DNA of 64,000 nucleotides from an uncultured Methanosarcinales archaeon (GTDB lineage: Archaea; Nanobdellota; Nanobdellia; Woesearchaeales; JAHJBD01), in contig CAZHRT010000001.1 in NCBI GenBank assembly GCA_964534665.1, forward strand, positions 76,037 through 140,036, given 5' to 3'. A program made the position numbers and the translations under genes. Position 1 is the stretch's first letter; each line of letters begins with the position of its first letter. A model generated the notes under the pieces. It worked only from the letters and a program-made list of their open reading frames with translations. It was not told the origin of the DNA and did no database searches. Below, one piece after another: positions 8,814 to 30,052 of the stretch.

Positions 8814-9875
8814 TTATTTACTAAAAACTAAAACTGCTAATTTCCCCTTACCAACACTAAGCTTTCTTTCCTCTTTTAATTTTAATTTATATTCAGAAGA
8901 AACTTTCTTTAACAAATCTAAGTTACTACCACAAACAACCATTACTCCACCATCTTTCAAGACAAACTCAACTTGATGTAAAAATTCATTATACAGTTTC
9001 TCAATCTGCTTAACATCAGACACCCTATTAACTTCTGGAACTTTTGTAACAATCCTATCAATAGATTTTTCTTTAAATTTAGTATCTAACCATTCTATAT
9101 CAACTTTTGAAAAAGTTATATTTTTATGAACACTTGCAATCTTAGCATTCTTCTTAGAATTGTTTAAATCTAACCATTCAGATGCATAACCATAAACTTC
9201 TAATTTTCCATCTTTGACATCATCTTTGAAATCAAATGAAAATAATTTATTAAAAGCTAATTTATCTTTATTATAATAATTAACACTTAAACCTAAACTA
9301 TAAAGTACTGCTTCAATCGGAATAAGGCCAGACCTACAAAAAGGGTCAACTAAAACATCACCAACTTTAAAACCAGATAATCTAACTAAGCCATAAGCAA
9401 TTGTTCCCCTTATAGAATCTTTATGTCCAAACAACTTATAACTTCTTTTTTGTAAGTCAATCCCAGAAAAATCAATTCCAATATAACATTGATCTTTAAC
9501 AAGATAAGCGAATATAATTGTATCTGGATTATTCAAATCAACCTTTCCCTCGATAAATTCACCAACTTTAGATTCTACTTCATCAAGATCGTTATCAATT
9601 TGAACAGAACTAACCCGAAAAGTACCCGTCAAAGAAAAATCAATATTTTTAACCTGTTTAAAATCATCAAGTGAACTAACTTTAAAATTATCTAATAATA
9701 ACAATACCTTATCTACGCTTTGACATTTATAACTCAACAAACAAAGTTCTTTCTCACTTTTAACATCAAGAATACAAAAACCTTCACCTAAAGAAGCACT
9801 AACACCAATCAATTCTTTAATTTCAAGAGCAGCAACATCTTCAAGGCCTTTAGAAACAATAACTAAACATTTCAT
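8814..9875 (-). CDS. THUMP-domain RNA methyltransferase (Trm11/Trm-G10-like, tRNA guanine-N2 methyltransferase family)
   Basis: N-terminal THUMP-like region, then class I MTase with [15 protein letters not shown] (compare DPMCGSGTIxIEA of UPF0020/PF01170). Confidence 0.7.
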
Positions 9876-12340
9876 TCTGTTACAATCTTAGCAGAAGCAA
9901 CTAACTCATCCCCTTCTGAAAGCCTCATCAACCTAACGCCCTGAGTTGCTCTCCCAATCATTGAAATCCCATTAACAGGAATCCTAATACATATACCTTC
10001 CCTGCTTATCATCATAATGTCATCTTCTTCAGAAACAGATCGAATAGCTCTAACCGGCCCATTCCTATCAGAACAAATAATATTCTTAACACCTACTCCA
10101 CCACGATTAGTTTCACGATATTCAGAAATCTTAGTTCGTTTACCAAAACCATTTTTAGTTACAGTTAACAAAGTTTTATTCTCTGATGCAAACACCATTT
10201 CAATAACTTTATCATCGCCTTTAAGAGTAATTCCCCTCACTCCACCAGCATTCCTACCCATTGCCCTAACCTTACTTTCATTAAATCTTATAGCCATTCC
10301 GTTTTTTGTGGCAATTATAACATCTTTTTTACCATCAGTTAATACAACATTAATTAATTCATCACCTTCGTGTAAAGTACAGGCAATTATCCCAGTGTTT
10401 CTTGGTCTACTAAATTGAGATAGATTAGTTTTCTTAACTACGCCAGTTCTAGTTGCCATAATTAAAAAATGCTCATCATCAAATTCTTTAACAGGAACAT
10501 ATGTACTAATTGTTTCATCATTTTCAAGATTCAATAAATTAACAATTGGTTTACCTTTAGCAATCCTACTGCCTTCAGGAATATTATAAACCTTTAACCA
10601 ATAAACCCTCCCCTTATTTGTAAAAAATAATAAATAAGAATGTGTATTAGCAACAAAAATATCTTCAACAAAATCCTCATCTTTTGTTCCTGCAGCAATA
10701 ACCCCTTTCCCACCACGTTTTTGTTGTTTATATGTTTCAACAGGAACTCTTTTGATATAACCTGAATGACTAATAGTGATTACCATTTCTTCAGGCTTAA
10801 TTAAATCTTCCATATCAATATCCTCATCGCCGTCTTCTGCAATACCTGTCCTTCTTTCATCACCATATTTCTCACGTATTTCAATTAATTCATTTTTTAT
10901 GATATCAAGAATCTTTTGTTCATCAGCTAATATGGTTGTTAATCTTTCAATAAGCTTAACTAATTCATCCAACTCATTTCTAATCTTATCTTGTTCTAAA
11001 GAAGTAATTTTTTGCAATTTCATATCCAAAATAGCATTAGCTTGTTTTTCAGATAATGAAAAATTAGCAATCAATGCTTGCCTAGCTTCTGCAACTGCTT
11101 TACTTTCTTTTAAGATTTTAATTGCTTGATCAATATTATCTAAAGCAATAACAATGCCTTTTAAGATATGCTCTTTATCTTTTGCAGCATTAAGATCAAA
11201 CTCTATCCTTTTCCTAACAACTTCTCTTCTATGATCAATAAAGTGTTGAAGCATCTGTTTTAAATTTAAAACACGTGGCTCATTATCAACCAAAGCAAGC
11301 ATGATAACACCAAAAGTGGTTTGCATTCTACTATGCTTATACAATTGATTCAACAAAACATCTGGATCAGCATTTTGCTTAAGTTCAATCACAACTCGCA
11401 TACCTTCTCTATCAGATTCATCTCTCAAATCAGAAATAGTATCAACTTTCTTATCTCGAACAAGGTTTGCTATTTCCTTTACCATCTCTGATTTATTAAC
11501 CATATAAGGAATTTCTGTAATAATAATTTTCTGCTTATTTTTAACCTCTTCAATATTGGTCTTAGCTCTTAAACGTAATTTACCCCTACCAGAAGTATAT
11601 GCACCAACAATCCCATTTCTACCACAAATTGTTGCACCAGTTGGAAAATCTGGTCCTGTGATACACTCCATTAACTCTCCAACAGTAATCTCAGGATTAT
11701 CCATCTGTTTAATAATACCTTCAACAATTTCATTCATGTTATGTGGAGGTATATTTGTTGCCATACCAACAGCAATACCAGAAGAACCATTTAATAACAA
11801 ATTAGGAAATTTAGCAGGAAGTACAGAAGGTTCTTTAAGACTACTATCAAAATTATCAACCATCTTAACAGTCTTTTTTTCAATGTCATGCAACATTTCC
11901 TCAGACAATTTGTTAAGTTTAGCTTCTGTATACCTCATTGCAGCAGCACGATCACCATCAATACTACCAAAATTACCTTGACCTTGAATTAAAGGATAAC
12001 GAAGAGACCAATTCTGAGCCATCCTAACCATTGAATCATAAACAGCAGAATCTCCATGTGGATGATACTTTCCCAAAACTTCCCCTACAATTCTAGCAGA
12101 CTTTCTAGAAGGCTTATTATGGAACATGCCCATATCATGCATAGCAAACAAAATTCTTCTGTGTACAGGCTTTAAACCGTCTCTAACATCAGGCAAAGCC
12201 CTTCCAACAATAACAGACATAGCATAATCTACATAACTTTGCCTCATTTCATCTTCGATTACACGAGGCACAATATTCTGCTTTTCAGGGGTATTTTCCT
12301 GATTAGATTCTTTGTTATTTTCAACCTGATTTTCATCCAT
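9872..12340 (-). CDS. gyrA: DNA gyrase subunit A
   Basis: [31 protein letters not shown], active-site Tyr region [11 protein letters not shown]-terminal beta-pinwheel repeats. 822 aa. Confidence 0.9.
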
Positions 12341-12492
12341 TTTATCGTCGAGAAAATAGTAATTCCCACATCAATTAGAATAGTGGTTTTCTTTATAAAT
12401 CTTATGGTTATGTTAGAAATAGCATTAGTGATTTCTAAGCATCCTAGAAATCTCTTTGAAATTGTAAAATTCTATAATTTAGAACTAAGAAA

Positions 12493-12624
12493 TTAACCAA
12501 TTATGTTATTTTTAACACTAAAATTCTTACCACAATAAACACATGCTTTTGATTTGCCTTTAATAATACTATTCCTACTTTCATACTTCATTTTATTATG
12601 ACATTTAGGACATCTAAGGATCAT
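12493..12624 (-). CDS. Small zinc-ribbon protein (43 aa), not in ORF track
   Basis: MILRCPKCHNKMKYESRNSIIKGKSKACVYCGKNFSVKNNIIG. CPxC...CxxC. ATG overlaps upstream ScpB TGA stop (ATGA). Confidence 0.4.
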   Translation of the reverse strand: MILRCPKCHNKMKYESRNSIIKGKSKACVYCGKNFSVKNNIIG

Positions 12625-13808
12625 TCTTCCTCTTTATCTATACTTTCAGAATCAGCTTCAAGCAAATCTTTCGCTCCTGGTTGGTCTTTTATAGGGATAC
12701 GATCATCAGGGTTTTCTTCTTTCTTTGGTTCTTGTATTTCTTCAGAAGGTTCTTCTTGGACTTCTTCTTTAACTTCTTCGCTAGATTCTTCTTTTGACTG
12801 TTCTAAACTCTCTTGTGCTTGGTCTTGTTCAGTTTCTTTTTCTGGTGTTTCTTCTACTTGTTCTTCTGGTTCAGGTCCTACTTCTTCTTTACCAGTAACT
12901 TCTTTATTATAATACCCAAAAACATGACTTACTTTATCATCAATCTTTTCTTCAGGTGCTTTAACTTCCGCTACAGCCTCAGTTCCTTCTTCAACTTCAT
13001 CTACATATTCTTCTTGATCAATTTGTTCTTCCTCAGCAACAGGTTTTTTTGGAACATCATAAACATTCATCCCATTAACTTCATCCTTAACAACTTCAGT
13101 ATGTGCTTCAGACTCTTTTGGTTTTTCTTCTTGTTGAATTTCTGACACATTAACAACATCAAGTTCTACTTCATTTCCTTCATTATCAATTAAATCAACT
13201 TCTTTATCATTTTCTTCAATTTCTTTCTTTTTCTTTGCTTCTTCTTTTAGTCTCTTTCGATGTTCTTCACGAATTTTTCTTATATCTTCTTCTTTATCTT
13301 CAATTGTTTTAGCAATAGACTCAAAATCTCTAAATTGGTCCTTTAAATTATCTTCTTTAAGATCAAAATATTCAAAAAATTTATCTGTTAACTTAATCAA
13401 CTTTGATCTACCATGTTTTTGCCTCGATATATAACCAAGTTCTTCAAGCTCCCTAAGATGATCATAAGCCTTATTACTCCTTATCCTAATCAAATCAGCT
13501 TGTTTTATAGGATATTTAAAAGCAATAACCGCTAAAGTCTCCATCAATGTTTTACTTAACTCAGTTTTAGAAACAATTTTCTTTATTAACTCCAAAAAAC
13601 TAGGTTTATTTGTTAATTTCCAATATATCCCATCATTAACAACTGTTAAAGCAGTATTTTCATTTTCAGCATAATCTTTACGTAACTCTTCTAAAGCAGG
13701 TTTTAAAGCATCTTGTTCAACCATTAACAAGTTTCCAAGCTCTTCAATAGACATTCTTCTACCAGAAGAAAACAATAGCGCCTCAACTTTCTTTTTAATC
13801 TCACTCAT
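12621..13808 (-). CDS. scpB: Segregation and condensation protein B (ScpB) with about 200-aa acidic disordered C-terminal tail
   Basis: MSEIKKKVEALLFSSGRRMSIEELGNLL...winged-helix ScpB N-terminus (EALLFaS, IRIRS...YDHLRELEELGYI). C-terminal half is E/K/D-rich low complexity. Confidence 0.75.
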   Translation of the reverse strand: MSEIKKKVEALLFSSGRRMSIEELGNLLMVEQDALKPALEELRKDYAENENTALTVVNDGIYWKLTNKPSFLELIKKIVSKTELSKTLMETLAVIAFKYPIKQADLIRIRSNKAYDHLRELEELGYISRQKHGRSKLIKLTDKFFEYFDLKEDNLKDQFRDFESIAKTIEDKEEDIRKIREEHRKRLKEEAKKKKEIEENDKEVDLIDNEGNEVELDVVNVSEIQQEEKPKESEAHTEVVKDEVNGMNVYDVPKKPVAEEEQIDQEEYVDEVEEGTEAVAEVKAPEEKIDDKVSHVFGYYNKEVTGKEEVGPEPEEQVEETPEKETEQDQAQESLEQSKEESSEEVKEEVQEEPSEEIQEPKKEENPDDRIPIKDQPGAKDLLEADSESIDKEEE

Positions 13809-14377
13809 TTGAGTGAATAGAAATCTTCTTCTTTTTTAATTTTTCCTTCTTTTTCAAGATTATCAAGCAAAGGTTTTAGTTCTTTATCAATAATCCCACT
13901 ATATTTTGAAATATCATCAGATGTACTATCACCTTTAACAGATAAAAGAACTAAAACTAAGTTTAATAGTGTTGTCCGCATATTTCTCTTTAAAAAACCG
14001 TTCTCTGCCCTTAATTGTTTGGCAACAGAATCAAGACCGTGTAATTTAGCTTGAAGATCATTTAACACACCTGCAACATCAAGATTGCTAAATTCCATTT
14101 TTTCTGGTTTTAAAACCTCAATAGATGAAGGCATATAACTAAAACAAAAACCAAACATTTCTTGAACATCCTTAACAACCATTTCTAATTCAACAAAAAC
14201 ACTCCACATCTTACCTTGCTCTTTAACATCTGAATATTCTTCTTTTAAGATAAGATAATCTGGGTTTTCCTTAATATCTTTAACATAATCCTTTATAGCT
14301 TTCTCTACGTGCTCTTTTGGTTTTCCTAAAACCTCAAGAATTGTAATAAATCTTACTTTTTTACCTTCTTCTACCAT
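13805..14377 (-). CDS. Hypothetical protein co-operonic with scpB (possible divergent kleisin/ScpA-like; unverified)
   Basis: 190 aa, 4-nt overlap with scpB start. No recognisable motif. Position suggests ScpA but sequence similarity not evident by eye. Confidence 0.4.
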   Translation of the reverse strand: MVEEGKKVRFITILEVLGKPKEHVEKAIKDYVKDIKENPDYLILKEEYSDVKEQGKMWSVFVELEMVVKDVQEMFGFCFSYMPSSIEVLKPEKMEFSNLDVAGVLNDLQAKLHGLDSVAKQLRAENGFLKRNMRTTLLNLVLVLLSVKGDSTSDDISKYSGIIDKELKPLLDNLEKEGKIKKEEDFYSLK

Positions 14378-14408
14378 TAAGTCATAGAATTAAACAGGAT
14401 TTATAAAA

Positions 14409-16178
14409 TTATTCCTTCTTTAGAATAAGATAAACAACAAACATACCCAATACAATAATTAAAAAACTTGTAATCATCTTTTTAGCTTTAAAATCATTTG
14501 ATTCATACACCAAATAAGGTTCTTTATACTTTACATAATTAGGATATAAAGAAGGTTGTATCTGTTCTTCTTTCAAAGATTCTGAATCCTTAACCTGAAC
14601 AATCTGCTTTTCTTCTTTTGTTTGAATTCCAATTACATTTATATCTTCTATTAACTGTTTATTTGTTTTCTGTTCATCTTTATTAATCAAAACTTTAAGC
14701 TTATAATCTCCTGGATCTGCATCTAAAACAATATTTCCGAGTTCAACTGTTGAAATACTCCCACCTTCCAAATAAAATGCCCTTTTATTATCCTCCCTAT
14801 CACCAGAATATGTTTTTGGTCCCCTATATACATAACTCCAAATTGCAACAGGAAACCCATCATCACCAGTATTTTCAAGCCTAACTTTAGTTACAAATTC
14901 TCTACCAAGATTAATAGATTTATCAATCTCAACAATTCGATAATCTAACTTTCCACTACTTGTTTTTTTCTCAACAACAACCTCTTCACACATTGATTTA
15001 GTGAAACCTGAAATGTCCATCTCCAAGCTATCCTCCAAATCTAACCCTTCCATAAATAATGTATATTGACCATCTTCATAATTCTGATCACAATTAGGTT
15101 TTAATTGAACAGGCAAAGTCAAAGTATAATTAGTATATTCTGAATAAACATTTGTTTTACTCTCTTTACTAACTCTCTCGTCTTCATTAGCAACCCATAA
15201 CGCAATACTATTTTTTGTTGTTTCACCTTTATGAATTTGTGCTTTAACCCTTATTGTTTGTCCAAATTTTGCTTTATTATCATTACCCAAATCATAAATT
15301 TTCTCAATCTTAAGTGAAGATTCAGAATTTCTTGCAGAACTATAAATCGCAAAAAGTTTTGTATCATAATTATTTGTTAAATCAGACTCATTACAACTTA
15401 TTTGTAAAGTTGCATTTATTAAATAAGCCATGCCTTTATCAAGATTAGGTGTATATTTTGAAGATGTCCTTTTTAAGGTAGCAGAACTGTTTGTCCAGGG
15501 TTTATATTCTTTAACAATATTACCGAAAAAATCACTGATATAAATTCTCCCAGTAATATTTGTTTTTTTATCATAAAGATTAGTTGCCCTTACTCTAAAA
15601 TCAAAATCTTCTCTATTAAACAAAGTTTTATTTAAAATAATTTCAATTTTCCAGTCACAAGTTCCATTTTCACGAATCATAAAACCAGAATTATCAAAAC
15701 CAGGGGTTGGATCTGCTAGATACCAACTATTATTCAATAAAGCCAAACTTTTTCCTGTTTCAGAACTTAAGTAACTAACATTATAAATCAACACAGAATC
15801 ATCATACAAATAAATATTTTCACCACTATTTCTTAAACCATTTCCAATTGAAGAATCTTCAACATACAATCTTACAACATCAGAATCCACATTAAAGTTA
15901 TTATAAACTCGTGTTGTATCATCAGTGATAATTGCATAACCTTTTGCAGGGATAACTGTGCCACCACCATTATATAATCCACCCTCAATAACATCTAATT
16001 CAGAATCATCACCAATCAACCAACCACTAACATCAACTTCAGAATCCCCATTATTGTAAAGTTCTATCCATTCATTTAATGATTCATCATACAAAGGATT
16101 AGGCATAATTTCATTTATTACAATATCTGCAGAAACAACTGGAATTAAGATTATAAACAATATCAAAGATATTTTCAA
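14409..16178 (-). CDS. Cell-surface protein: signal peptide, lamin-tail domain (LTD), large unknown region, C-terminal TM anchor
   Basis: N-terminal MKISLILFIILIPVVSA then DIVINEIMPNPLYDESLNEWIELYNNGDSEVDVSGWLIGDDS (LTD consensus INEim.NP...NEwIELyN.g...vdLsGW.l.D). C-terminal ITSFLIIVLGMFVVYLILKKE. Confidence 0.75.
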   Translation of the reverse strand: MKISLILFIILIPVVSADIVINEIMPNPLYDESLNEWIELYNNGDSEVDVSGWLIGDDSELDVIEGGLYNGGGTVIPAKGYAIITDDTTRVYNNFNVDSDVVRLYVEDSSIGNGLRNSGENIYLYDDSVLIYNVSYLSSETGKSLALLNNSWYLADPTPGFDNSGFMIRENGTCDWKIEIILNKTLFNREDFDFRVRATNLYDKKTNITGRIYISDFFGNIVKEYKPWTNSSATLKRTSSKYTPNLDKGMAYLINATLQISCNESDLTNNYDTKLFAIYSSARNSESSLKIEKIYDLGNDNKAKFGQTIRVKAQIHKGETTKNSIALWVANEDERVSKESKTNVYSEYTNYTLTLPVQLKPNCDQNYEDGQYTLFMEGLDLEDSLEMDISGFTKSMCEEVVVEKKTSSGKLDYRIVEIDKSINLGREFVTKVRLENTGDDGFPVAIWSYVYRGPKTYSGDREDNKRAFYLEGGSISTVELGNIVLDADPGDYKLKVLINKDEQKTNKQLIEDINVIGIQTKEEKQIVQVKDSESLKEEQIQPSLYPNYVKYKEPYLVYESNDFKAKKMITSFLIIVLGMFVVYLILKKE

Positions 16179-17712: not shown

Positions 17713-18708
17713 TTATTTCCATACACCAACAATCTTTTCTTTATTTAACATGCCTTGCTTAATATTATTTTTAACAATATTAAACCTGCCTCTTTCAATA
17801 GCAACCTTTTTACCTTTAGGAGAATATGTATTACTTGCTTCATTTGCCAAAACATTTCCAACATAGACATAATTTAAACCAGATTTTAAAGCAATTTCTC
17901 TTGACATCATTAAAGTAGAAGCAGGAGTAGGAATCTTATCTAACATTTTATTACAAGGATAAAATGCACTAAAATGAAGTGGAACATCTTTTCCAACATT
18001 CTCTTTGATCCATTCACACATTTCTTTAATTTGTTCTATATTATCATTTAATTTAGGGATTATCAAATTTGTAAGTTCTAACCAAACTCCTGCTTTCTTG
18101 ATAGTTTTTATTGATTCCAAAATAGGTTCAAGCCAAGCTGTTGTATATTTTCTATAAAATCTATCATCAAAACTCTTTAAATCAATATTTGCTGCATCAA
18201 TATATTTACACCATTCTTTAAGCGGTTCTTGATTAATAAATCCATTACATACAATAATATTCTTAATTCCTTCTTTTTTAGCAATTTTCATAATATCCAA
18301 AGCATATTCATAAAATACAATTGGATCATTATAGGTATAAGCAATTGATTTACAACCAGCTTGTTTAGCTTTTTCAACAACAGCTTTAGGAGAAATAAAC
18401 TCACAATCAAAATCATTTGCTTGAGAAATTTCCCAGTTCTGACAAAAATCACAATGTAAATTACATCCAATAGTACCAAAAGAAAAAACTTTTGATCCAG
18501 GTAAAAAATGATACAAAGGTTTTTTTTCAATAGGATCAACAGCTAAAGAACAAGGTTTACCATAAACTTTTGAATATAATTTACCTTTAACATTCTCCCT
18601 AACTCTACATTGTCCAACAGCCCCTTCTTTAATTACACATAATTTAGGACACAAAATACATTGTACAACAGATTTATTCTTACTATTCCAATACTTTGCT
18701 TGTTCCAT
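17713..18708 (-). CDS. amrS: AmmeMemoRadiSam-system radical SAM enzyme (AmrS-like)
   Basis: QCILCPKLCVIKEGAVGQCRVRENVKGKLYSKVYGKPCSLAVDPIEKKPLYHFLPGS...GCNLHCDFCQNW closely matches AmrS family (CxxxCxxC plus N-terminal Cys cluster). Confidence 0.8.
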   Translation of the reverse strand: MEQAKYWNSKNKSVVQCILCPKLCVIKEGAVGQCRVRENVKGKLYSKVYGKPCSLAVDPIEKKPLYHFLPGSKVFSFGTIGCNLHCDFCQNWEISQANDFDCEFISPKAVVEKAKQAGCKSIAYTYNDPIVFYEYALDIMKIAKKEGIKNIIVCNGFINQEPLKEWCKYIDAANIDLKSFDDRFYRKYTTAWLEPILESIKTIKKAGVWLELTNLIIPKLNDNIEQIKEMCEWIKENVGKDVPLHFSAFYPCNKMLDKIPTPASTLMMSREIALKSGLNYVYVGNVLANEASNTYSPKGKKVAIERGRFNIVKNNIKQGMLNKEKIVGVWK

Positions 18709-18767
18709 ATTATTAATATTCCAAATCCATTATATTAAAGTTTCCACAAATTAGTTACCATTATTTA

Positions 18768-19538
18768 ATGAACCTAAATATTTTTAAATGTACACTACAT
18801 AAAAAAATAAAAGGGGTGAATTTATTGAAATTATTCGAGAAGAAGAAGAAAGATTTCTCAACTGAAAAACTAGACGTTCCGCCAGCTCCGCCTCCAATGT
18901 ATGAACCTATTCCTGCTCCAAATGAGCTTCCAGTTGAACCAGCACCATTACCAGAATTACCTAAATTTGAAATGCCAGAAGCACCTAATTTATCACAATC
19001 ACTTAATCCTCCAAATATTCCTGAAAAAAAGAAGTTTAGTTTTTTCAAGAAAAAAGCACCAGCTTTACAACAACCATTGCCACATAATTTACCAGAACAA
19101 ACATTACCACCAATCGAAGAACTAAATGCTCCTAAAATACAACAACCAATATTACCACAAATTAACACACCAACTTTTCCAGAAATGCCTGAAGCACCAG
19201 CTATCGAACCAATTTTTCCTGAAATTCCTCAAGCTCCTATTGAACCAGCTTTACCACAAATGCCACAAGAACCTATTGTACAACAACCAGTTCCTCAAGC
19301 ACCAATTGCTCCTAAGATAGAATCAAAAGAAAAATACCTTGGAATTGAAAGTTTTAGAAGAATAATGGACAATGTAAAAGGAATAAAAAATACAGTTAAA
19401 TTAGTTGTTGGTATGCCTGTTGAAGTAGAACAAGAAGAAAAACAACTTAACAAAAATTTCGAATCATGGAAAGCTAGTATGAAAGACATACAAAAACAGC
19501 TTTCTTTCATTGATAAAATATTATTTGAAGGTGATTAA
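18768..19538 (+). CDS. Proline-rich protein with C-terminal coiled-coil domain homologous to the next two genes
   Basis: PEAP/PQAP-type repeats (EMPEAPNLS...PEMPEAPAIEPIFPEIPQAPIEPALPQMPQEP). C-terminus ...FESWKASMKDIQKQLSFIDKILFEGD aligns with ...IDWKTTIDEIEQRLEGIDNILFEPEA of 19539..19760. Likely true start TTG 18825 after GGGGTG RBS. Confidence 0.55.
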   Translation: MNLNIFKCTLHKKIKGVNLLKLFEKKKKDFSTEKLDVPPAPPPMYEPIPAPNELPVEPAPLPELPKFEMPEAPNLSQSLNPPNIPEKKKFSFFKKKAPALQQPLPHNLPEQTLPPIEELNAPKIQQPILPQINTPTFPEMPEAPAIEPIFPEIPQAPIEPALPQMPQEPIVQQPVPQAPIAPKIESKEKYLGIESFRRIMDNVKGIKNTVKLVVGMPVEVEQEEKQLNKNFESWKASMKDIQKQLSFIDKILFEGD

Positions 19539-19760
19539 ATGGAAGCTCCAGTATTTGTAAAAATTGATGAATATAAAGACGTGCTAGACACAATACAACT
19601 AGCTAAAGAAAAACTAGAAGATGCTAAGTCAACATTACAACAAATTGAAAGCATCAAACAAAAAGAAGACAACGAACTTATCGATTGGAAAACAACAATT
19701 GATGAAATTGAACAGCGGCTTGAAGGTATTGACAACATCTTATTTGAACCAGAAGCATAA
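19539..19760 (+). CDS. Small coiled-coil protein (73 aa), paralog family member
   Basis: VFVKIDEYKDVLDTIQLAKEKLEDAKSTL...IDNILFE. Immediately follows previous stop. Confidence 0.55.
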   Translation: MEAPVFVKIDEYKDVLDTIQLAKEKLEDAKSTLQQIESIKQKEDNELIDWKTTIDEIEQRLEGIDNILFEPEA

Positions 19761-19766
19761 ATAAAT

Positions 19767-20147
19767 ATGGCACAAACAAAAAAAGAATCATTATTTGTAA
19801 AGGTACCAGAACCTAAGAGTCTAAGAATTAATATTCTAGAAAGCTCTAAAGATATACTAGGTGCTCTAACAAAATATGAAGTTTATAAAAAAACTCGTGA
19901 AGAAAAAAAAGTATTGTTAGAAAAAGTAAGACATACATTAAAAGAAGTCTCAAAAACAATCACAGTATTAAGAAACTCATTACCTAAAATTAATATTAAA
20001 GAAGTTAAACCAATCAAACAAAAATTGCCAGCTATAAAACCTCAAGCACAAGCACCAATGGTAATTAAACCAAGAAAAAAATCAGAACTAGAAAGACTAG
20101 AATCTGAACTTGCTGCAATTGAAAGCAAAATCAATTCAATTGCTTAA
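19767..20147 (+). CDS. Coiled-coil protein (126 aa), third paralog with K/P-rich C-terminal extension
   Basis: LFVKVPEPKSLRINILESSKDILGALTKYEVYKK... shares the FVK[IV].E...I pattern. C-terminal KPIKQKLPAIKPQAQAPMVIKPRKK. Confidence 0.55.
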   Translation: MAQTKKESLFVKVPEPKSLRINILESSKDILGALTKYEVYKKTREEKKVLLEKVRHTLKEVSKTITVLRNSLPKINIKEVKPIKQKLPAIKPQAQAPMVIKPRKKSELERLESELAAIESKINSIA

Positions 20148-20213
20148 TTCTTTTGATTAAATTTAAATAATATGGTTTAATTCTATTTCTTATCCTATTG
20201 GCCATATTACAAT

Positions 20214-20352
20214 GCGGGGATGCCGGAGTGGCCAATCGGGGTAGACTCAAGGCAATTGAGTGCTGAGTGTTGCTTAGCAATGCGATGAAGAAACTATTTG
20301 TAAGTCATCTACTGGCTTAGTGCCTACGTGGGTTCGAATCCTACTCTCCGCA
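20214..20352 (+). tRNA. tRNA-Leu (anticodon CAA) with ~52-nt intron
   Basis: GCGGGGA TG CCG GAGTGGCCAAT CGG G GTAGA CTCAAG[intron GCAATTG...AAGTC]A TCTAC, class II variable arm TGGCTTAGTGCCTA, GTGGG TTCGAAT CCTAC, TCTCCGC A. Confidence 0.75.
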
Positions 20353-20453
20353 TTTTTTATTTTTCTCGGACTATTGTAATGTTGCACAATTCACCACTTA
20401 GGAGTAATAAATAACCCAAAGATTTATATACTAGTTATTCTTAATTTAAACAT

Positions 20454-20819
20454 ATGACTGAATATAAACCATTAAACCATGATACAATTGCAGAAGCAGT
20501 TAACGTTTACTATACTGCAGCTTTTGATTTGGATATTAATGAATCGCGAAGAAATCAAGATACTAGGGAGATTATCGCTAGCCTTGCAAAATCTCATGAA
20601 GCTGAACCGCGTTGTGGAATTCAAGAAGATCCACAAACAAAAATGACTTGGACCAAGGGACGTTCTTCAAACTTTCCAGGTGCAGATTATAGCATACAAG
20701 TTTGGAGCCCAACATATTATACACCGGGAACTAATGAAAAGTTAAAAGAAAGGATTGAACAAAGAATATGTAAAGTAGTAGAAAAATTAACTGAAGCTAA
20801 CTTTCCTGCCACTTCTTAA
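20454..20819 (+). CDS. Hypothetical protein (121 aa), atypical composition, directly downstream of tRNA-Leu
   Basis: MTEYKPLNHDTIAEAVNVYYTAAFDL... lower Lys/Ile content and locally higher GC than neighbours. Confidence 0.45.
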   Translation: MTEYKPLNHDTIAEAVNVYYTAAFDLDINESRRNQDTREIIASLAKSHEAEPRCGIQEDPQTKMTWTKGRSSNFPGADYSIQVWSPTYYTPGTNEKLKERIEQRICKVVEKLTEANFPATS

Positions 20820-20918: not shown

Positions 20919-22244
20919 ATGATACAAATAACAGCAATCGGCGGTTACAATGAAGTTGGCAAGAATATGACTGCTGTAAAAATAGATGATGAAATAATTG
21001 TACTAGATATGGGCCTACACCTAGAATCCTATATTAAATTCAGTGATGAAGGTGGCGAAGACCTAATTAAAGTTTCAAGAAAACAACTTAGAACTATTGG
21101 AGCAATACCAGATGATACTGTTCTTAAAGATAAAAACAAAGTTAAAGCAATAATTCCAACTCACGCACATTTAGACCATGTTGGCGCCCTAATATTTATG
21201 GCTAAGAAATACAAAGCACCGATTATATGTACACCTTTTACTCATGAAGTTGTAAGACAAATCTCAGATGATGAAAAAATAAAAATCAATAACCAGTTTA
21301 AAATTCTAAATGTAAATTCCAAAATAAAACTCTCAAATAACATCACTATAGAATTCATCAACATGACCCACTCTACTCCACAAACAGTCATGGTAGCTAT
21401 CCATACAAAATATGGAATAATTATCTATGCAAATGATTTCAAATTTGACAATAATCCAATAATTGGTAAAAAACCTAATTACAAAAGATTAGAAGAACTC
21501 GGTGAAATTGGTGTTAAAGCACTAATATGCGATTCTACAAGGGCAAGAAGGATGGGAAAAACACCCTCAGAATTAATTGCAAGAGAAATGTTAAGAGATG
21601 TTATGTTGGGTGTAAATTCTGAAGGTAAATCAGTTATTGTAACAACTTTCTCATCACATATTGCAAGGCTCAAATCAATTGTAGAATTTGGCAAAAAAAT
21701 GAAACGGGAAGTTATCTTTCTTGGAAGATCATTAGCAAAATATTCAGAAGCTGCTGAAAACGTAGGAATTATTAATTTTTCAAAAGAAGTAGAAATTGTA
21801 AAATATGGTAATAAAATAAGAAAAAAACTAAAACAAATCAGTAAACAGCCTGACAAATATTTACTTGTCGTAACTGGACACCAAGGTGAACCTAAAGCTG
21901 CTTTATCAAAGATGGCAAAAAACCAAATGGATTTCAAATTTAAACCTGAAGATCACGTAATATTTTCATGTACAGTTATTCCATCAAAAACAAACTTGGA
22001 TAACAGAAAATTATTAGAAAAAGAACTTGAAAACAAAGGGATTAGAATATTCAAAGACATCCACGCATCAGGCCATGCTAGTAGAGAAGATCTAAGAGAC
22101 CTATTAAACCTTGTAAAACCAGAACATATCATCCCAGCTCATGGAGATGATAGCATGAAAGAAGCCTTAATCTCACTAGCAAAAGAAAAAGGAAATAGAA
22201 AAATCCACAAACTCCATAATGGAGACACAATAACTATAGAATAA
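20919..22244 (+). CDS. rnj: Beta-CASP ribonuclease (archaeal RNase J)
   Basis: Metallo-beta-lactamase motifs IPTHAHLDHVGAL, beta-CASP region, C-terminal HASGHAS. Confidence 0.85.
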   Translation: MIQITAIGGYNEVGKNMTAVKIDDEIIVLDMGLHLESYIKFSDEGGEDLIKVSRKQLRTIGAIPDDTVLKDKNKVKAIIPTHAHLDHVGALIFMAKKYKAPIICTPFTHEVVRQISDDEKIKINNQFKILNVNSKIKLSNNITIEFINMTHSTPQTVMVAIHTKYGIIIYANDFKFDNNPIIGKKPNYKRLEELGEIGVKALICDSTRARRMGKTPSELIAREMLRDVMLGVNSEGKSVIVTTFSSHIARLKSIVEFGKKMKREVIFLGRSLAKYSEAAENVGIINFSKEVEIVKYGNKIRKKLKQISKQPDKYLLVVTGHQGEPKAALSKMAKNQMDFKFKPEDHVIFSCTVIPSKTNLDNRKLLEKELENKGIRIFKDIHASGHASREDLRDLLNLVKPEHIIPAHGDDSMKEALISLAKEKGNRKIHKLHNGDTITIE

Positions 22245-22284: not shown

Positions 22285-23037
22285 ATGTACATGAAACTTA
22301 CTTTGGCAGAGCCAACTTATCTAAAAGAAAGCATATCAATCATTTCTGAATTAGTAAACGAAGCAAGATTTAAAGTTAGTAAAGAAGCAATTGAACTAGT
22401 TGCAATGGACCCAGCCAATGTGGCCATGGTTATATTTAAACTATTAAGCAGCTGCTTTACAGAATACAATGTTGAAGAAACAACAGAATTAGCAATAAAC
22501 CTTAACAATCTAAAACAGATATTAAGAAGAGCTAGTTCAAACGACATGGTTACTCTAGAACTTAGTGGAGACAACCAACTAAAAATTCAATTGAAAGGTA
22601 ACACAACTAGAACATTTAATCTACCTATAATTGAACTTGAAGATAAAGAACAAAAAATACCTGATTTATCTTTTCCAACAACAATTATGCTTGCATCAAC
22701 AATATTAAACAGCGCTATAGAAGATGCAGACATTGTTGGTGAATCTGTTTCTTTTGAGTCAGAACCTAAAAAGTTTACAATAAAAGCAGAAGGTGAATTA
22801 TCAGCTGCTAAGATAGAAATTGATGAAAGTGAAGATGTCAAAATCAGTGTTGAAGGAGATTCTAAGATAAAATCAAAATACAGTATTGAATATCTTAAAA
22901 AAATGATGAACGGCTCAAAATTATCTGAAAACGTTTCAATCTACTTTAACAAAGACTACCCATTAAAACTAGAATATAAAGCAATAGACAAAGTTATGTT
23001 AAGTTTTATTTTAGCACCAAGGGTAGAAAACGACTAG
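22285..23037 (+). CDS. pcn: DNA polymerase sliding clamp PCNA
   Basis: LKESISIISELVNEARFKVSKEAIELVAMDPANVAMV...NLNNLKQILRR matches archaeal PCNA N-terminus. 250 aa. Confidence 0.85.
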   Translation: MYMKLTLAEPTYLKESISIISELVNEARFKVSKEAIELVAMDPANVAMVIFKLLSSCFTEYNVEETTELAINLNNLKQILRRASSNDMVTLELSGDNQLKIQLKGNTTRTFNLPIIELEDKEQKIPDLSFPTTIMLASTILNSAIEDADIVGESVSFESEPKKFTIKAEGELSAAKIEIDESEDVKISVEGDSKIKSKYSIEYLKKMMNGSKLSENVSIYFNKDYPLKLEYKAIDKVMLSFILAPRVEND

Positions 23038-24407
23038 ATGGCTGTAAATTTTTCTAATTTTTTCTTTGTTTCTTCTAAATCTTTAGGCATCTTATCAGCA
23101 TAATACAAAGCTAATTGGGCAGCATCCTTATTATTAATTTTCCCTTCATTAACAAACCCCTTATTTTTTGCATAACTCAATATTCTATCAGACATAGACT
23201 TTTTATTATCAATCATATCATAAACTGGCCTTATAATTGGGGCGTATCTTTTAGGTGTAACAGACCTAGCAAAGTTAAAAAAACGTTTAACATAATTATA
23301 CATCTCTTTCTTAGAATAACCATCATAAGCACCCCAATATTGAAGTTTGTTTCTTACATAAGAATGTGGTGGTATGTATAAAACATCATTTTCAAGTTTA
23401 AACGCATCTTCTATTCCAAAATCAACAGGCATTACTTCAATAAATTCTCGTTGAATTTTTTTCAAACAAAATTTAAGAAGTACACCAACACCAATAAGAA
23501 TTGAAACAAAATTAACATCCATACCCCTTTGCTCTAACGTACCATGTTTATTAATTTTAATTGGATTCCACCCAATATCTAAATTATAAGGATATAGTTT
23601 AGAGAAATTAACATTAGGTGCTACTTTTTTTACTTCCCTTTTCCATCTATCCCATCTTTTATTTAAACTAGTAAGAATATCTGTTGCTGTTTGTTTATAT
23701 GGGGGTAAGCCACCAAGCTGTTGTAAATTCGCATACACCCCATCCATATACTTTAATTTCTTACCACCACGATAAACTAACATCCTTGTATCTTTTGCAA
23801 AATTTCTACCTTGATAAAATGGTGAAGATTGTGTGAATAATGTTAAAGCCGGGTCTGCCGCAATCTCAAAATTATAAGAAGAAACCATTGTTCGCTTTAA
23901 TTTGCTTTTTTTGTAAAACCTTAATTCTTTCTTTTTCTCATCAAAAACACTTTTAGGTAAAGTATAATGATTATGATACCCAGTAACCCTACAAGTTGTT
24001 TTTGTTTTTTCATCACCAAATATCTTTTGTTTTATCCTATATGTTTGACCATCTTGAATAATGGGATCAAACTTACCTGGATAAGTAGAAAAAGGAAACA
24101 AAGTTAATCCTTTTGATTCACAAATTTCTTGCGCTTTTTGAATGGAATCTATAATATTTAATGCAGGATTATAAGTTTTAATATCAGGATAACATCCAAA
24201 TTCAATCATATTCAAACCTATTTCTTTAGTAACAGGAATATCTGGATACTTTAATTTAAGTTCTGAAATAACTTCTAAAGCCTTATTAGACATTGTACCA
24301 TTAGAATTCAAAATATGAAACTCTGCTTCCTGTCCAGTTTTAGAACGTTTAAGCACTTTTTTCTTATCGCTAAACGATTTATTCACTAATTTCATCTTCA
24401 ATATCAA
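23034..24407 (-). CDS. Carboxylate-amine ligase, glutamate-cysteine ligase family 2 (GCS2/YbdK-like)
   Basis: QEAEFHILNSNG (compare GIELEMQVVN of YbdK), CRVTGYHNHYTL (compare FGQHVHVGC), SSPFYQGRNFAKDTRMLVYRG (compare [20 protein letters not shown]). Confidence 0.75.
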   Translation of the reverse strand: MILKMKLVNKSFSDKKKVLKRSKTGQEAEFHILNSNGTMSNKALEVISELKLKYPDIPVTKEIGLNMIEFGCYPDIKTYNPALNIIDSIQKAQEICESKGLTLFPFSTYPGKFDPIIQDGQTYRIKQKIFGDEKTKTTCRVTGYHNHYTLPKSVFDEKKKELRFYKKSKLKRTMVSSYNFEIAADPALTLFTQSSPFYQGRNFAKDTRMLVYRGGKKLKYMDGVYANLQQLGGLPPYKQTATDILTSLNKRWDRWKREVKKVAPNVNFSKLYPYNLDIGWNPIKINKHGTLEQRGMDVNFVSILIGVGVLLKFCLKKIQREFIEVMPVDFGIEDAFKLENDVLYIPPHSYVRNKLQYWGAYDGYSKKEMYNYVKRFFNFARSVTPKRYAPIIRPVYDMIDNKKSMSDRILSYAKNKGFVNEGKINNKDAAQLALYYADKMPKDLEETKKKLEKFTAI

Positions 24408-28723: not shown

Positions 28724-30052
28724 ATGCCTAAAAAAGGAATTGTACCGTTATATTATGTTGTAATGGCACACCCAAATGATGGAACTGTTGTTCCAATGCC
28801 TCCATCACAGTTTGCTATTGCTGAAGTAGCTTCACGTACAAGACAAGAATTAACAGATTTATTAGCACAAATTAACACAAGATTCTTAGATGGTTCAAAC
28901 GATTTACCATTTCTAAAACAAGCATGGGAACAAGATTTCAGAGGTCAAAAAGCAGAAAGCGCTTTTACTATTGCAGACCTAGAACATGCAGTAAAATGTG
29001 AATTAAGACCTGCTGCAAGACATGTTGTTTATAGCGGAGAGAGTATTCCGTCTTATAATTTAGTTAGACAAGAAGCATTTGGTAATGGGGAATTAGAAAC
29101 AAGAAAAGGTATGATGAAATCAGCATCACATCACGACCAAGCATCATTATCTATAAAAGCAATTCAAAGTGGTGTAGGAAAAGAAGCAGGAAAGTATAGG
29201 GATGTTACATTTAGGGCACCATTCCTAATAGAAGATGGTGGTGAAGTATTCATTAATCCTGCATACCTTGCAGATTGCACTTGTAGGGCACACAGTAAAC
29301 AAGTTGCTAGAGATTTAAGAACACCACAAAGAAATACCTATTTAGTATGCCACCACATTGCTGCTGGAATAAGAGAATTATATCTAGAAAAAGAAAGAAT
29401 TGTTCCGATAAGAATTAAAGGGTTAAGCAATAGAAGTTTAAGAGGACAAAGAGGAGCAGTTCTTAACCCATATAACTTACATGAAAATCCAGAACTTGCT
29501 TTAGAAGCAGTTGTAAGAAGATTTGTATTTGGCCATAAACTTAGCGATATAGACAGATCATTAATGGATGAAGACATTTTCTCAACCCAATATCAAGATT
29601 TAAGAAATTCTAAACCTGGACAATTAAGAAGAGAAGTTGTTCAATCTACACAAAACTTTCCAGGAGTATATGGCAAAATTAAAGAAGAAATGATCTCTGC
29701 ACTTACAGAACATGGATATGAATATTTAGGAAATGCAATTTCATTTAGAGACACAGAATATGAAACAGTCTCAAAAGTATTCGGAAATAGGCATAGTGGC
29801 AAAATGATACATATACTATATGATCCTTCAGTTGGTATAAACAGCCCTCATTTCTTATTAAAACTCAGACCAGGACAAGTAGACACCCAATATGGTGATC
29901 CTTTAAATCAACTGCCAGACAACCCAGTAGCGTGTGTAAACAGGCCCTTTTTAGAAACAGATGATATGACTGGTGTTGATAGAGTATCTTTAGTAAAAAC
30001 ACCAGTTAGCATACTAACAGTAAATGCCAGAAAACAATTATATACAGAATAA
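28724..30052 (+). CDS. Hypothetical protein (442 aa), compositionally atypical (R/Q/H/A-rich, locally higher GC)
   Basis: MPKKGIVPLYYVVMAHPNDGTVVPMPPSQF... no recognised motif. Directly adjacent to a tRNA gene. Confidence 0.5.
   Translation: MPKKGIVPLYYVVMAHPNDGTVVPMPPSQFAIAEVASRTRQELTDLLAQINTRFLDGSNDLPFLKQAWEQDFRGQKAESAFTIADLEHAVKCELRPAARHVVYSGESIPSYNLVRQEAFGNGELETRKGMMKSASHHDQASLSIKAIQSGVGKEAGKYRDVTFRAPFLIEDGGEVFINPAYLADCTCRAHSKQVARDLRTPQRNTYLVCHHIAAGIRELYLEKERIVPIRIKGLSNRSLRGQRGAVLNPYNLHENPELALEAVVRRFVFGHKLSDIDRSLMDEDIFSTQYQDLRNSKPGQLRREVVQSTQNFPGVYGKIKEEMISALTEHGYEYLGNAISFRDTEYETVSKVFGNRHSGKMIHILYDPSVGINSPHFLLKLRPGQVDTQYGDPLNQLPDNPVACVNRPFLETDDMTGVDRVSLVKTPVSILTVNARKQLYTE

Follow-up and report, generated by a model that had tools for sequence, protein, structure and literature searches.

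Three consecutive ORFs on the plus strand of the 64-kb stretch of DNA analysed here (the window), at 18768-19538, 19539-19760 and 19767-20147, raise the question of whether they encode related proteins and what such small coiled-coil products might do for the cell. The first-pass annotation had read them as genes for 256, 73 and 126 aa forming a triplet of paralogs, and all three are present with every peptide it quoted, the 256 aa being counted from the first ATG. On the signals in the DNA, the most likely start of gene 1 is TTG 18825, giving 237 aa, and not ATG 18768, because a Shine-Dalgarno-like GGGGTGA lies upstream of the TTG and a TATA-like box, TTTTTAAA, falls inside the 5' extension, ~37 nt 5' of TTG 18825 and within the first 19 codons of the 256-aa ORF. 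The shorter model opens with MKLFEKKKK, which fits both the N-terminal motif of the family and NCBI gene call P0021. The ATG of gene 2 directly adjoins the stop of gene 1, with GGTGAT upstream of gene 2, and 6 nt separate gene 2 from gene 3; Shine-Dalgarno-like boxes are present. This spacing is best explained by a tightly packed, translationally coupled operon. A dN/dS of ~0.04 was obtained for gene 2 against its relative in locus L005, and on the sequence evidence the three ORFs are demonstrably real genes under purifying selection. The features of the locus are as follows.

18781 to 18788, plus strand: TATA-like box TTTTTAAA, read from the sequence, a candidate archaeal promoter for the operon
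18813 to 18819, plus strand: Shine-Dalgarno-like GGGGTGA, 5 nt 5' of TTG 18825, favouring the 237-aa model
18825 to 19538, plus strand: gene 1, 237 aa from TTG (longest ORF from ATG 18768), with an N-terminal peptide, an acidic Pro-rich linker and a C-terminal coiled-coil module
18825 to 18851, plus strand: gene 1 residues 1-9, MKLFEKKKK, hydrophobic and polybasic, a putative membrane-binding motif
18870 to 18896, plus strand: gene 1 residues 16-24, LDVPPAPPP, a conserved polyproline motif (family form LDxPPxPP)
19026 to 19055, plus strand: gene 1 residues 68-77, KKKFSFFKKK, a second, internal hydrophobic and polybasic motif
19169 to 19278, plus strand: tandem repeat of 36 nt x3 found by TRF, encoding the 12-aa Pro-rich units TFPEMPEAPAIE, PIFPEIPQAPIE and PALPQMPQEPIV
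19332 to 19535, plus strand: gene 1 residues 170-237, the C-terminal module, a heptad coiled-coil helix paralogous to gene 2
19539 to 19760, plus strand: gene 2, 73 aa, the module on its own; it starts with VFVKIDEYKDVL, has a polar core layer K..ED.E and an invariant Trp50, and ends in LFEP
19767 to 20147, plus strand: gene 3, 126 aa, the invariant operon partner
19788 to 19985, plus strand: gene 3 residues 8-73, an LFVKV start and a 56-residue helix with invariant Pro73 at its end, a probable distant copy of the module
19986 to 20081, plus strand: gene 3 residues 74-105, a disordered basic K/P-rich linker (pLDDT <50 for residues 89-101)
20082 to 20144, plus strand: gene 3 residues 106-126, a C-terminal amphipathic helix, ELEKLE.EL..IE.KL..L, with near-invariant columns and a heptad pattern (AF2 helix 107-125)

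The C-terminal ~68 aa of gene 1 match gene 2 in BLASTP with E = 1e-6 and 22% identity over 65 aa. The gene-2 family HMM matches gene 1 at residues 190-254 with 1.6e-8, and it finds the gene-1-like ORF in 79 of 80 related loci with values from 1e-8 to 1e-20. By these statistics the C-terminus of gene 1 and gene 2 are true paralogs, beyond chance. When modules from many loci were compared, the nearest neighbour belonged to the same class (gene 1 module or gene 2) in 160 of 163 cases, so the duplication that separates them is ancient. Gene 3 stands much further away. Its pairwise BLASTP comparison with genes 1 and 2 gave nothing significant, and small alignments compared with the module gave hhalign P = 0.013, with HMM scores of reversed sequences as high as those of the real ones. 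Enlarged profiles of 225 module and 122 gene-3 sequences, the latter cut at their hydrophobic start motif, a choice that anchors the alignment, yielded P = 2e-5 and a probability of 77% over 60 columns, against P ~0.01 for controls with one side reversed. These profiles indicate that the N-terminal helix of gene 3 is probably a very distant copy of the module. The proposed triplet of paralogs is thus clear for genes 1 and 2, but under formal statistics the similarity is half lost for gene 3, which is at chance level pairwise and joins the other two only as a probable profile-profile relative.

Hydrophobic periodicity showed a spectral peak at 3.45-3.5 residues in gene 2, in the C-terminus of gene 1 and in the N- and C-terminal helices of gene 3 (3.45 for the N-terminal one). 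The register is continuous over ~8 heptads, where one a/d layer holds a polar K/E and the next d position a Trp. AF2, run on monomers only, predicted long single helices at residues 9-69 of gene 2 (pLDDT 87) and 16-71 of gene 3 (pLDDT >95). The coiled-coil character seen in the first-pass annotation is supported, and periodicity and models together place the predicted helices among canonical left-handed coiled coils, which is a structural class and not a family. A heuristic count of g-e' ionic pairs ranked a gene 1:gene 2 pair above the gene 2 homodimer, with the gene 1 homodimer scoring equally well. Members of the module family share a VFVKI-type start (VFVKIDEYK), the K..ED.E polar layer, an invariant Trp and an LF(E)(P) end; gene-3 homologs share a FFVGI..P.E.RR..LES.K helix, a basic linker and the ELEKLE.EL..IE.KL..L terminus. 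The genes of the window match both descriptions.

In 79 of 80 GTDB loci a gene 2 of ~75 aa is immediately preceded by a gene-1-like ORF with the C-terminal module, and a gene-3-like ORF follows gene 2 directly wherever the contig continues, so that the triplet is indeed conserved in related genomes, a point that the first-pass annotation had proposed to check. The same trio is also present in a lineage of 37% GC. A two-gene form, consisting of one module protein and a gene-3 homolog, was found at 67 of 78 loci on unclassified metagenome contigs, where the neighbours are different; the only invariant link is therefore that between a module protein and gene 3. Across ~160 loci all three families are kept in position and motif. 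The module family comprises 2863 clusters at E ≤ 1e-3 and 598 at E ≤ 1e-10, and beside the unclassified two-gene contigs it is seen only in Woesearchaeota/Nanoarchaeota-type MAGs. Conserved neighbours, each in 33-47 loci, are ScpB, the MJ0538 family, an LTD protein, RNase J and PCNA. Woesearchaeota-type genomes place the operon in one block with GyrA, ScpB, RNase J and PCNA, and in locus L088 the operon lies next to RFC. A tRNA gene also adjoins the trio. The two-gene lineage does not keep this chromosome-biology block, its neighbours being a TFE-like protein, AlaRS and an M50 peptidase, and for that reason we gave the neighbourhood less weight as a functional clue; judged from gene order, it may reflect plain synteny.

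The statement in the first-pass annotation that no named family is recognisable agrees with our searches. In Pfam and NCBIfam the best matches were scattered coiled-coil families, all below the curated gathering cut-off, and no family of either database recurred among 47 gene-2 or 31 gene-3 homologs. Searches of PDB sequences with single sequences and profiles, Foldseek against the PDB, PHROGs, PADLOC and phage tblastn gave no match for the operon genes. All database names of the homologs read 'hypothetical protein', and literature searches returned no description of the module or the gene-3 family. The best explanation of these results is that the operon encodes an undescribed, lineage-restricted coiled-coil family of Woesearchaeota/Nanoarchaeota-type DPANN archaea.

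In gene 1 a conserved hydrophobic and polybasic N-terminal peptide is followed by a disordered linker, a layout comparable to that of SepF. The motif M-G-[FL]-[FL]-x-[FL]-[FL]-K-K opens 79 of 81 gene-1 homologs, and in 69 of the 81 a polyproline motif lies no more than 45 aa from the start. We take the form MGFLKFLKR to resemble the membrane-targeting helix KGFLKRLFGG of E. coli MinD. The helical hydrophobic moment of the N-terminal 11-mers of gene 1 was no higher than that of shuffled sequences. Internal motifs of the KKKFSFFKKK type were found in the window and in four relatives (L001, L005, L008 and L029). Across the family the linker is acidic and Pro-rich, ranges from 51 to 341 aa and carries a net negative charge in 92% of homologs. 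In the window it includes the 36-nt repeat (3.0 copies, TRF score 88, 72% matches) and the peptides MPEAP (twice), IPQAP and MPQEP, confirming the PEAP/PQAP-type extension described earlier. The K/P-rich tail ascribed to gene 3 also holds, and family-wide its linker is basic, with 30% K/R and a net positive charge in 96% of 76 homologs; some gene 3 homologs carry long N-terminal S/T/K-rich, H1-like extensions. Read from the sequences, all three proteins have neither a signal peptide nor a hydrophobic transmembrane stretch, which places them in the cytoplasm or, at most, peripherally on the inner face of the membrane. This disfavours the cell-cell attachment function that had been suggested.

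Taken together, sequence and models lead us to favour, with a confidence somewhat short of even, a heteromeric coiled-coil scaffold built by the three products on the cytoplasmic face of the membrane. Gene 1 would bind the membrane peripherally through its MGFLKFLKK-type N-terminal peptide, with the internal KKKFSFFKKK possibly adding to this binding in the subclade of the window, and its acidic Pro-rich linker would serve as a flexible or PPII-like spacer. Its C-terminal helix could zip up with two partners, gene 2 and the long N-terminal helix of gene 3. Gene 3 would form the effector end, its basic linker and terminal helix binding either a polyanion, such as nucleic acid or acidic lipid, or another protein. 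Coiled coils that carry disordered tails serve many different functions, which counts against the scaffold reading. As to the process served, our leading guess, drawn by analogy, is division-site or nucleoid tethering that would organise the membrane-proximal cytoplasm; it is based on the architectural likeness to SepF, ZipA, DivIVA and ZapB and on the neighbourhood of ScpB, GyrA, RNase J and PCNA. A role in the cytoskeleton, which the first-pass annotation also considered, would be equally conjectural. That the operon encodes a DPANN-specific, membrane-anchored coiled-coil filament or tether for division or for a nucleoid-membrane link in ultra-small archaea, with no homolog in model organisms, is a narrower proposal, possible but rather doubtful.

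Several other explanations have to be weighed against the scaffold. If the complex were a tether or regulator of the FtsZ ring, gene 1 would be a SepF- or ZipA-like anchor, and the coiled coils would serve, like bacterial ZapA/ZapB or EzrA, to cross-link the divisome or to position it. Gene 1 does follow the plan of archaeal SepF (PMC8178401), with a putative membrane peptide linked flexibly to a C-terminal interaction domain, and its linker recalls the P/Q linker of ZipA. Gene 2 has about the size of ZapB and a single coiled-coil helix in the AF2 model, and in L088 a PRC-barrel gene, of the domain class that includes the CdpB family, lies 5 kb downstream. However, no SepF, ZapA/B, DivIVA or EzrA model matches, and linkage to ftsZ or sepF was not seen in ~160 loci. 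Moreover, SepF already accompanies FtsZ across archaea, genomes with FtsZ carrying SepF and those without FtsZ lacking it (Pende et al. 2021, PMC8178401), and we regard a function at the FtsZ ring as unlikely. A motif scan bears out the earlier remark that FtsZ- or Cdv-type genes are missing from the 64 kb, but the remark is uninformative, since the contig to which the window belongs measures 262 kb or more. Improbable to a similar degree is a nucleoid-membrane tether or chromatin scaffold, in which the Lys-rich linker of gene 3 binds DNA or RNA and gene 1 fixes the complex to the membrane. The charge of the gene 3 linkers, the H1-like extensions of some homologs and the block with GyrA, ScpB, RNase J, PCNA and, in L088, RFC would suit such a role, but the two-gene lineage does not keep this synteny, and basic tails suit acidic lipids or acidic protein tails equally, so that the partner could be the acidic linker of gene 1 itself.

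Far less probable is a divergent ESCRT-III/PspA-like remodelling system with an MGLF...KK amphipathic insert, polymerising helices and a MIM-like helix in gene 3 that recruits an AAA ATPase. The N-termini MGLFSKKKK and MGLFGKKKK of family homologs, which we take to resemble those of CHMP3 and PspA, and the conserved terminal amphipathic helix of gene 3 after a flexible linker would agree with it. Yet Snf7 and PspA_IM30 gave no match even at E ≤ 1, AF2 shows one helix of 55-60 residues per protein in place of an alpha1-alpha2 hairpin with an alpha3-alpha5 core, and no Vps4, MIT or AAA gene occurs at any examined locus. The charges of the gene 3 helix also misfit the MIM1 consensus (D/E)xxLxxRLxxL(K/R), whose Arg/Lys positions are missing, and both fold and motif led us to reject the ESCRT-III/MIM reading. 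A more trivial explanation, that the resemblance is mere low-complexity similarity among coiled coils or that the ORFs are not genes, could draw on the chance-level BLASTP result for gene 3 and on the first HMM test, in which reversed sequences matched real ones. It is nevertheless highly improbable, as both pairwise and profile statistics establish the homology of genes 1 and 2, the three families are fixed in position and motif over ~160 loci with dN/dS ~0.04, and enlarged profiles split real from reversed comparisons for gene 3; statistics, conservation and dN/dS refute both chance similarity of genes 1 and 2 and non-gene ORFs. The genes are small, unannotated, fast-evolving and located beside a tRNA gene, as might be expected of mobile-element, viral or defence cargo, but PHROGs, PADLOC and phage tblastn were negative and the chromosomal position between housekeeping genes is fixed in many species, which makes a cargo set the least credible of these explanations.

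The membrane scaffold remains our preferred reading, and the architecture of the operon points to the membrane-cytoplasm interface, the least-understood part of archaeal cell biology. Woesearchaeota-type DPANN archaea are abundant and uncultivated and have tiny genomes. Strong purifying selection keeps the operon in hundreds of species, in genomes that shed nearly all dispensable genes, and it likely performs a basic task. New here are the family definitions with their conserved motifs, the corrected start of gene 1 and the minimal two-gene form of the operon.

Among known systems, SepF (PF04472), the FtsZ membrane anchor of archaea and bacteria, resembles gene 1 in layout: it is small and cytoplasmic, and a flexible linker joins its N-terminal membrane-binding peptide of ~12 residues to a C-terminal part that oligomerises and binds partners (PMC8178401). 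The SepF core is alpha/beta, whereas the operon proteins have a single heptad helix and purely helical AF2 models, and PF04472 gave no match at E ≤ 1. The linker of gene 1 is also much longer, acidic and Pro-rich, and the operon itself encodes its partner proteins. ZipA, the FtsZ tether of gamma-proteobacteria, joins a membrane anchor to a C-terminal binding module through a long unstructured spacer rich in P and Q. It differs in its true transmembrane helix, its globular C-domain and its restriction to bacteria, and homology with the operon proteins was not detected. ZapB, DivIVA and GpsB are short proteins of essentially one coiled-coil helix that form oligomeric scaffolds at the membrane or Z-ring, and gene 2 is about as long as ZapB. 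None of the three was found at E ≤ 1 for the window proteins or among the top families shown in the family-wide scans, and the VFVKIDEYK start, K..ED.E layer, Trp and LFEP end are specific to this archaeal, DPANN-restricted family. ESCRT-III, PspA and Vipp1 have an MGLF-type peptide that inserts into the membrane, helices that polymerise and, behind a flexible linker, a terminal helix, to which parts of the operon proteins would correspond, but the multi-helix core, Snf7/PspA matches, Vps4 neighbour and MIM1 charge pattern are all absent here.

The divisome-positioning Dip system of Haloferax (DipA/B/C) is likewise a three-gene archaeal operon near replication genes, with one component whose conserved termini enclose a variable disordered region (PMC13228585). 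It consists of the GTPase DipA, the DUF2073 (SepF-like) protein DipB and the Zn-ribbon protein DipC, and within DPANN it is reported from Nanohaloarchaeota only (PMC13228585). Identity with Dip was rejected, as the three proteins are without P-loop, DUF2073 or Zn-ribbon. A wider frame is given by passages of Castelle et al. 2021 (PMC8204110), according to which the distinctness of Woesearchaeota-type DPANN archaea from other archaea lies largely in unnamed protein families. The same passages, which describe no coiled-coil operon, report a module 98 of 51 families specific to Pacearchaeota and Woesearchaeota, mostly of unknown function. In taxonomic restriction and in lack of annotation, the families of the operon are just like those of module 98 as these passages portray it (PMC8204110).

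All three open reading frames quoted in the first-pass annotation were found in the window, which is AT-rich (~31% GC) and archaeal. They lie among the following features:

Upstream of the radical-SAM gene, minus strand: LTD-domain protein, ScpB, GyrA and THUMP methyltransferase
17713-18708, minus strand: radical-SAM protein
18768-19538, plus strand: gene 1
19539-19760, plus strand: gene 2
19767-20147, plus strand: gene 3
20919-22244: RNase J
22285-23037: PCNA

The ATG of gene 2 abuts the TAA stop of gene 1, with GGTGAT immediately 5' of the ATG, and 6 nt separate the gene 2 stop from the gene 3 start; read from the DNA, the three genes form a compact operon, bounded downstream by a tRNA gene. 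This tRNA-Leu(CAA) (20213-20353, plus strand), directly 3' of gene 3, carries a 55-nt anticodon-loop intron and was found by ARAGORN in intron mode; default ARAGORN and Rfam at the gathering threshold missed it, and Rfam at a relaxed threshold gave only a weak partial tRNA-Sec-like match at the site. A 135-aa Gly-rich antisense ORF (18761-19168) was rejected as a gene and mirrors the proline codons of gene 1. ORFs of 121 aa (20454-20819, plus), 457 aa (23034-24407, minus) and 442 aa (28724-30052, plus) have no Pfam match. GC skew is strongly negative, at -0.2 to -0.36, across the first ~28 kb and becomes positive at ~30-50 kb, a pattern that probably tracks gene orientation.

Public calls differ in the start of gene 1: 256 aa from an ATG (JGI) or 237 aa from a TTG (NCBI model P0021). 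The TTG at 18825 is favoured because SD-like and TATA-like boxes in the 18768-18824 region fit it, with GGGGTGA 5 nt 5' of the TTG and TTTTTAAA at 18781-18788. Translation from this codon begins MKLFEKKKKDFSTEKLDVPPAPPP..., reproducing the N-terminal motif found family-wide; judging from these signals, translation probably does not start at the ATG at 18768.

The predicted products share a modular anatomy. Gene 1 proteins open with a peptide M-G-[FL]-[FL]-x-[FL]-[FL] and a lysine run (79/81 homologs), and a polyproline motif, LD[LIM]PPxPP, occurs in 69 of the 81. Their linker spans 51-341 aa (median 123), is 20% Pro and is net negative in 92% of homologs. The proline repeats noted in the first-pass annotation are borne out in the window copy, whose linker carries a 36-nt x3 tandem repeat encoding 12-aa Pro units; a second hydrophobic/polybasic motif in this linker, KKKFSFFKKK, is common to four relatives (loci L001, L005, L008 and L029). 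The module, a heptad coiled-coil helix, forms the C-terminal part. It starts with hydrophobic PVFVKI(D/E)xYK, keeps an unbroken register over ~8 heptads with a single polar layer conserved in its core (K at a, E at d; LK..ED.E motif) and an invariant Trp at the next d position, and ends in LFEP. AF2 models gene 2 as a single helix (residues 9-69, pLDDT 87). Gene 3 proteins begin FFVGI..P.E.RR..LES.K and comprise a long helix of 56 residues (pLDDT >95) with an invariant Pro at its end, a disordered linker of 23-74 aa (30% K/R, net positive in 96% of homologs) and a nearly invariant terminal helix, ELEKLE.EL..IE.KL..L.

The operon had been described as a triplet of paralogs. This holds for genes 1 and 2: the gene 1 C-terminus matches gene 2 by BLASTP (E=1e-6), an HMM of gene 2 homologs hits gene 1 at 1.6e-8, and this same HMM picks up the C-terminal end of the ORF lying upstream in 79 of 80 species-level GTDB genomes (E=1e-5 to 1e-20). 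The two copies fall into distinct classes, with the nearest neighbour in the same class for 160/163 sequences, so the duplication is an old one and neither copy has been lost. Gene 2 is the better conserved (mean identity 51% vs 30% for the gene 1 copy), and against its ortholog in related locus L005 it gives dN=0.087 and dS ~2. For gene 3 the claim is probable only. BLASTP against genes 1 and 2 stayed at chance level, an initial profile-profile comparison with the module gave P=0.013, and real gene 3 helices scored the same as reversed sequences in HMM searches, so that HMM signal reflects generic heptad periodicity. Once a second lineage had been added to both alignments, bringing them to 225 module and 122 gene 3 sequences, hhalign gave a probability of 77% (P=2e-5, 60 columns), with FFVGI aligned to VFVKI; reversing one side as a control gave P ~0.01. 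Judged by these profile alignments, gene 3 probably represents a module copy, though a very distant one.

Word-indexed searches returned few relatives; an exhaustive profile search returned 2863 clusters at E<=1e-3 and 598 at E<=1e-10, either as ~75-aa stand-alone proteins or at the C-terminus of 100-290-aa proteins starting MGLFSKKKK or MGFLNFLKKK. All GTDB loci (80/80) come from Woesearchaeota, Nanoarchaeota or Nanobdellota MAGs, and the gene order is essentially invariant across them. The trio is a real, strongly conserved and undescribed family and operon confined to one DPANN branch. The same Woesearchaeota-type operon and synteny occur in several GTDB records titled 'uncultured Methanosarcinales archaeon (binchicken...)' (L017, L022, L025, L030, L034, L048 and others), titles that look like taxonomic mislabels.

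A wider block is frequent (33-47 loci), with ScpB, an MJ0538-family protein and the lamin-tail-domain (LTD) protein on one strand and the trio, RNase J and PCNA on the other. The minus-strand part, 5' of the operon (9872-16178 in the window; loci L001, L003, L005-L084), recurs in 38-47 loci. Its MJ0538-family protein (~190 aa) matches PF27325 in relatives, the window copy having no Pfam match at E<=0.001; the LTD protein is ~590 aa, and only in the window does GyrA adjoin the block. In a lineage of 37% GC the trio stands with RNase J and PCNA, after which come a PRC-barrel gene and RFC; in locus L088 of this lineage an 87-aa PRC-barrel protein (14305-14568, plus) lies ~5 kb 3' of the trio, beside the RFC small subunit. 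The archaeal division proteins CdpB1/2 belong to the PRC-barrel domain class. As a pointer to the cellular process served, which may be division, nucleoid tethering or another one, the chromosome-biology neighbourhood of the trio is suggestive within one lineage only.

Scanning metagenomes with the short 'MGLFSKKK' subfamily as query yielded 80 loci, with the module detected in 78. A gene 3 homolog directly follows a single module protein (117-204 aa) in 67 of these 78, and none has a separate gene 2; the minimal conserved unit is therefore the module protein with gene 3, relative to which the window's lineage has an additional stand-alone module copy. The neighbours differ (TFE-like protein, AlaRS, M50 peptidase). 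The divergent gene upstream (L085 7008-7871, minus, and 47 other loci) has a very long lysine/valine-rich tail with KKKVVKKKV repeats and looks TFE/TFIIE-alpha-like by eye.

We propose that the trio forms a peripheral-membrane heteromeric coiled-coil scaffold. The gene 1 product would anchor the putatively membrane-bound complex and supply its spacer. Gene 2 would zip onto the C-terminal helix of gene 1, as would the helix of gene 3, whose basic linker, together with its terminal helix, would make up the presumptive effector end. The hydrophobic moment of the gene 1 N-terminal peptide is not above that of shuffles; ionic g-e' scoring ranks gene 1:gene 2 above gene 2:gene 2, but not above gene 1:gene 1. 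No signal peptide or transmembrane stretch was read in the three products, and cell-cell attachment, a role floated in the first-pass annotation, is unlikely because the proteins lack an export signal. For multimer prediction and simple biochemical work the operon offers a good, clearly delimited target.

In line with the by-eye reading of the first-pass annotation, no named family emerged among curated families, solved structures, or phage or defence families, and source databases name all trio homologs 'hypothetical protein'. In layout, gene 1 resembles SepF (PMC8178401), with a putative membrane peptide, flexible linker and C-terminal interaction part, and more loosely ZipA; gene 2 is like ZapB in size and form; and the gene 1 MGLF...KK peptide and the gene 3 terminal helix are reminiscent of ESCRT-III/PspA. 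Tested case by case, the defining domains of these systems were absent from the trio. The recently described archaeal Dip trio, in which a GTPase is joined by DUF2073 and Zn-ribbon proteins (PMC13228585), was rejected as unrelated. Castelle et al. 2021 (PMC8204110) count 51 families, mostly unannotated, specific to Pacearchaeota and Woesearchaeota, among which the trio plausibly belongs. Judged by its architecture, the trio would rank among coiled-coil scaffolds tethered to the membrane, but it shows no detectable homology to any of these.
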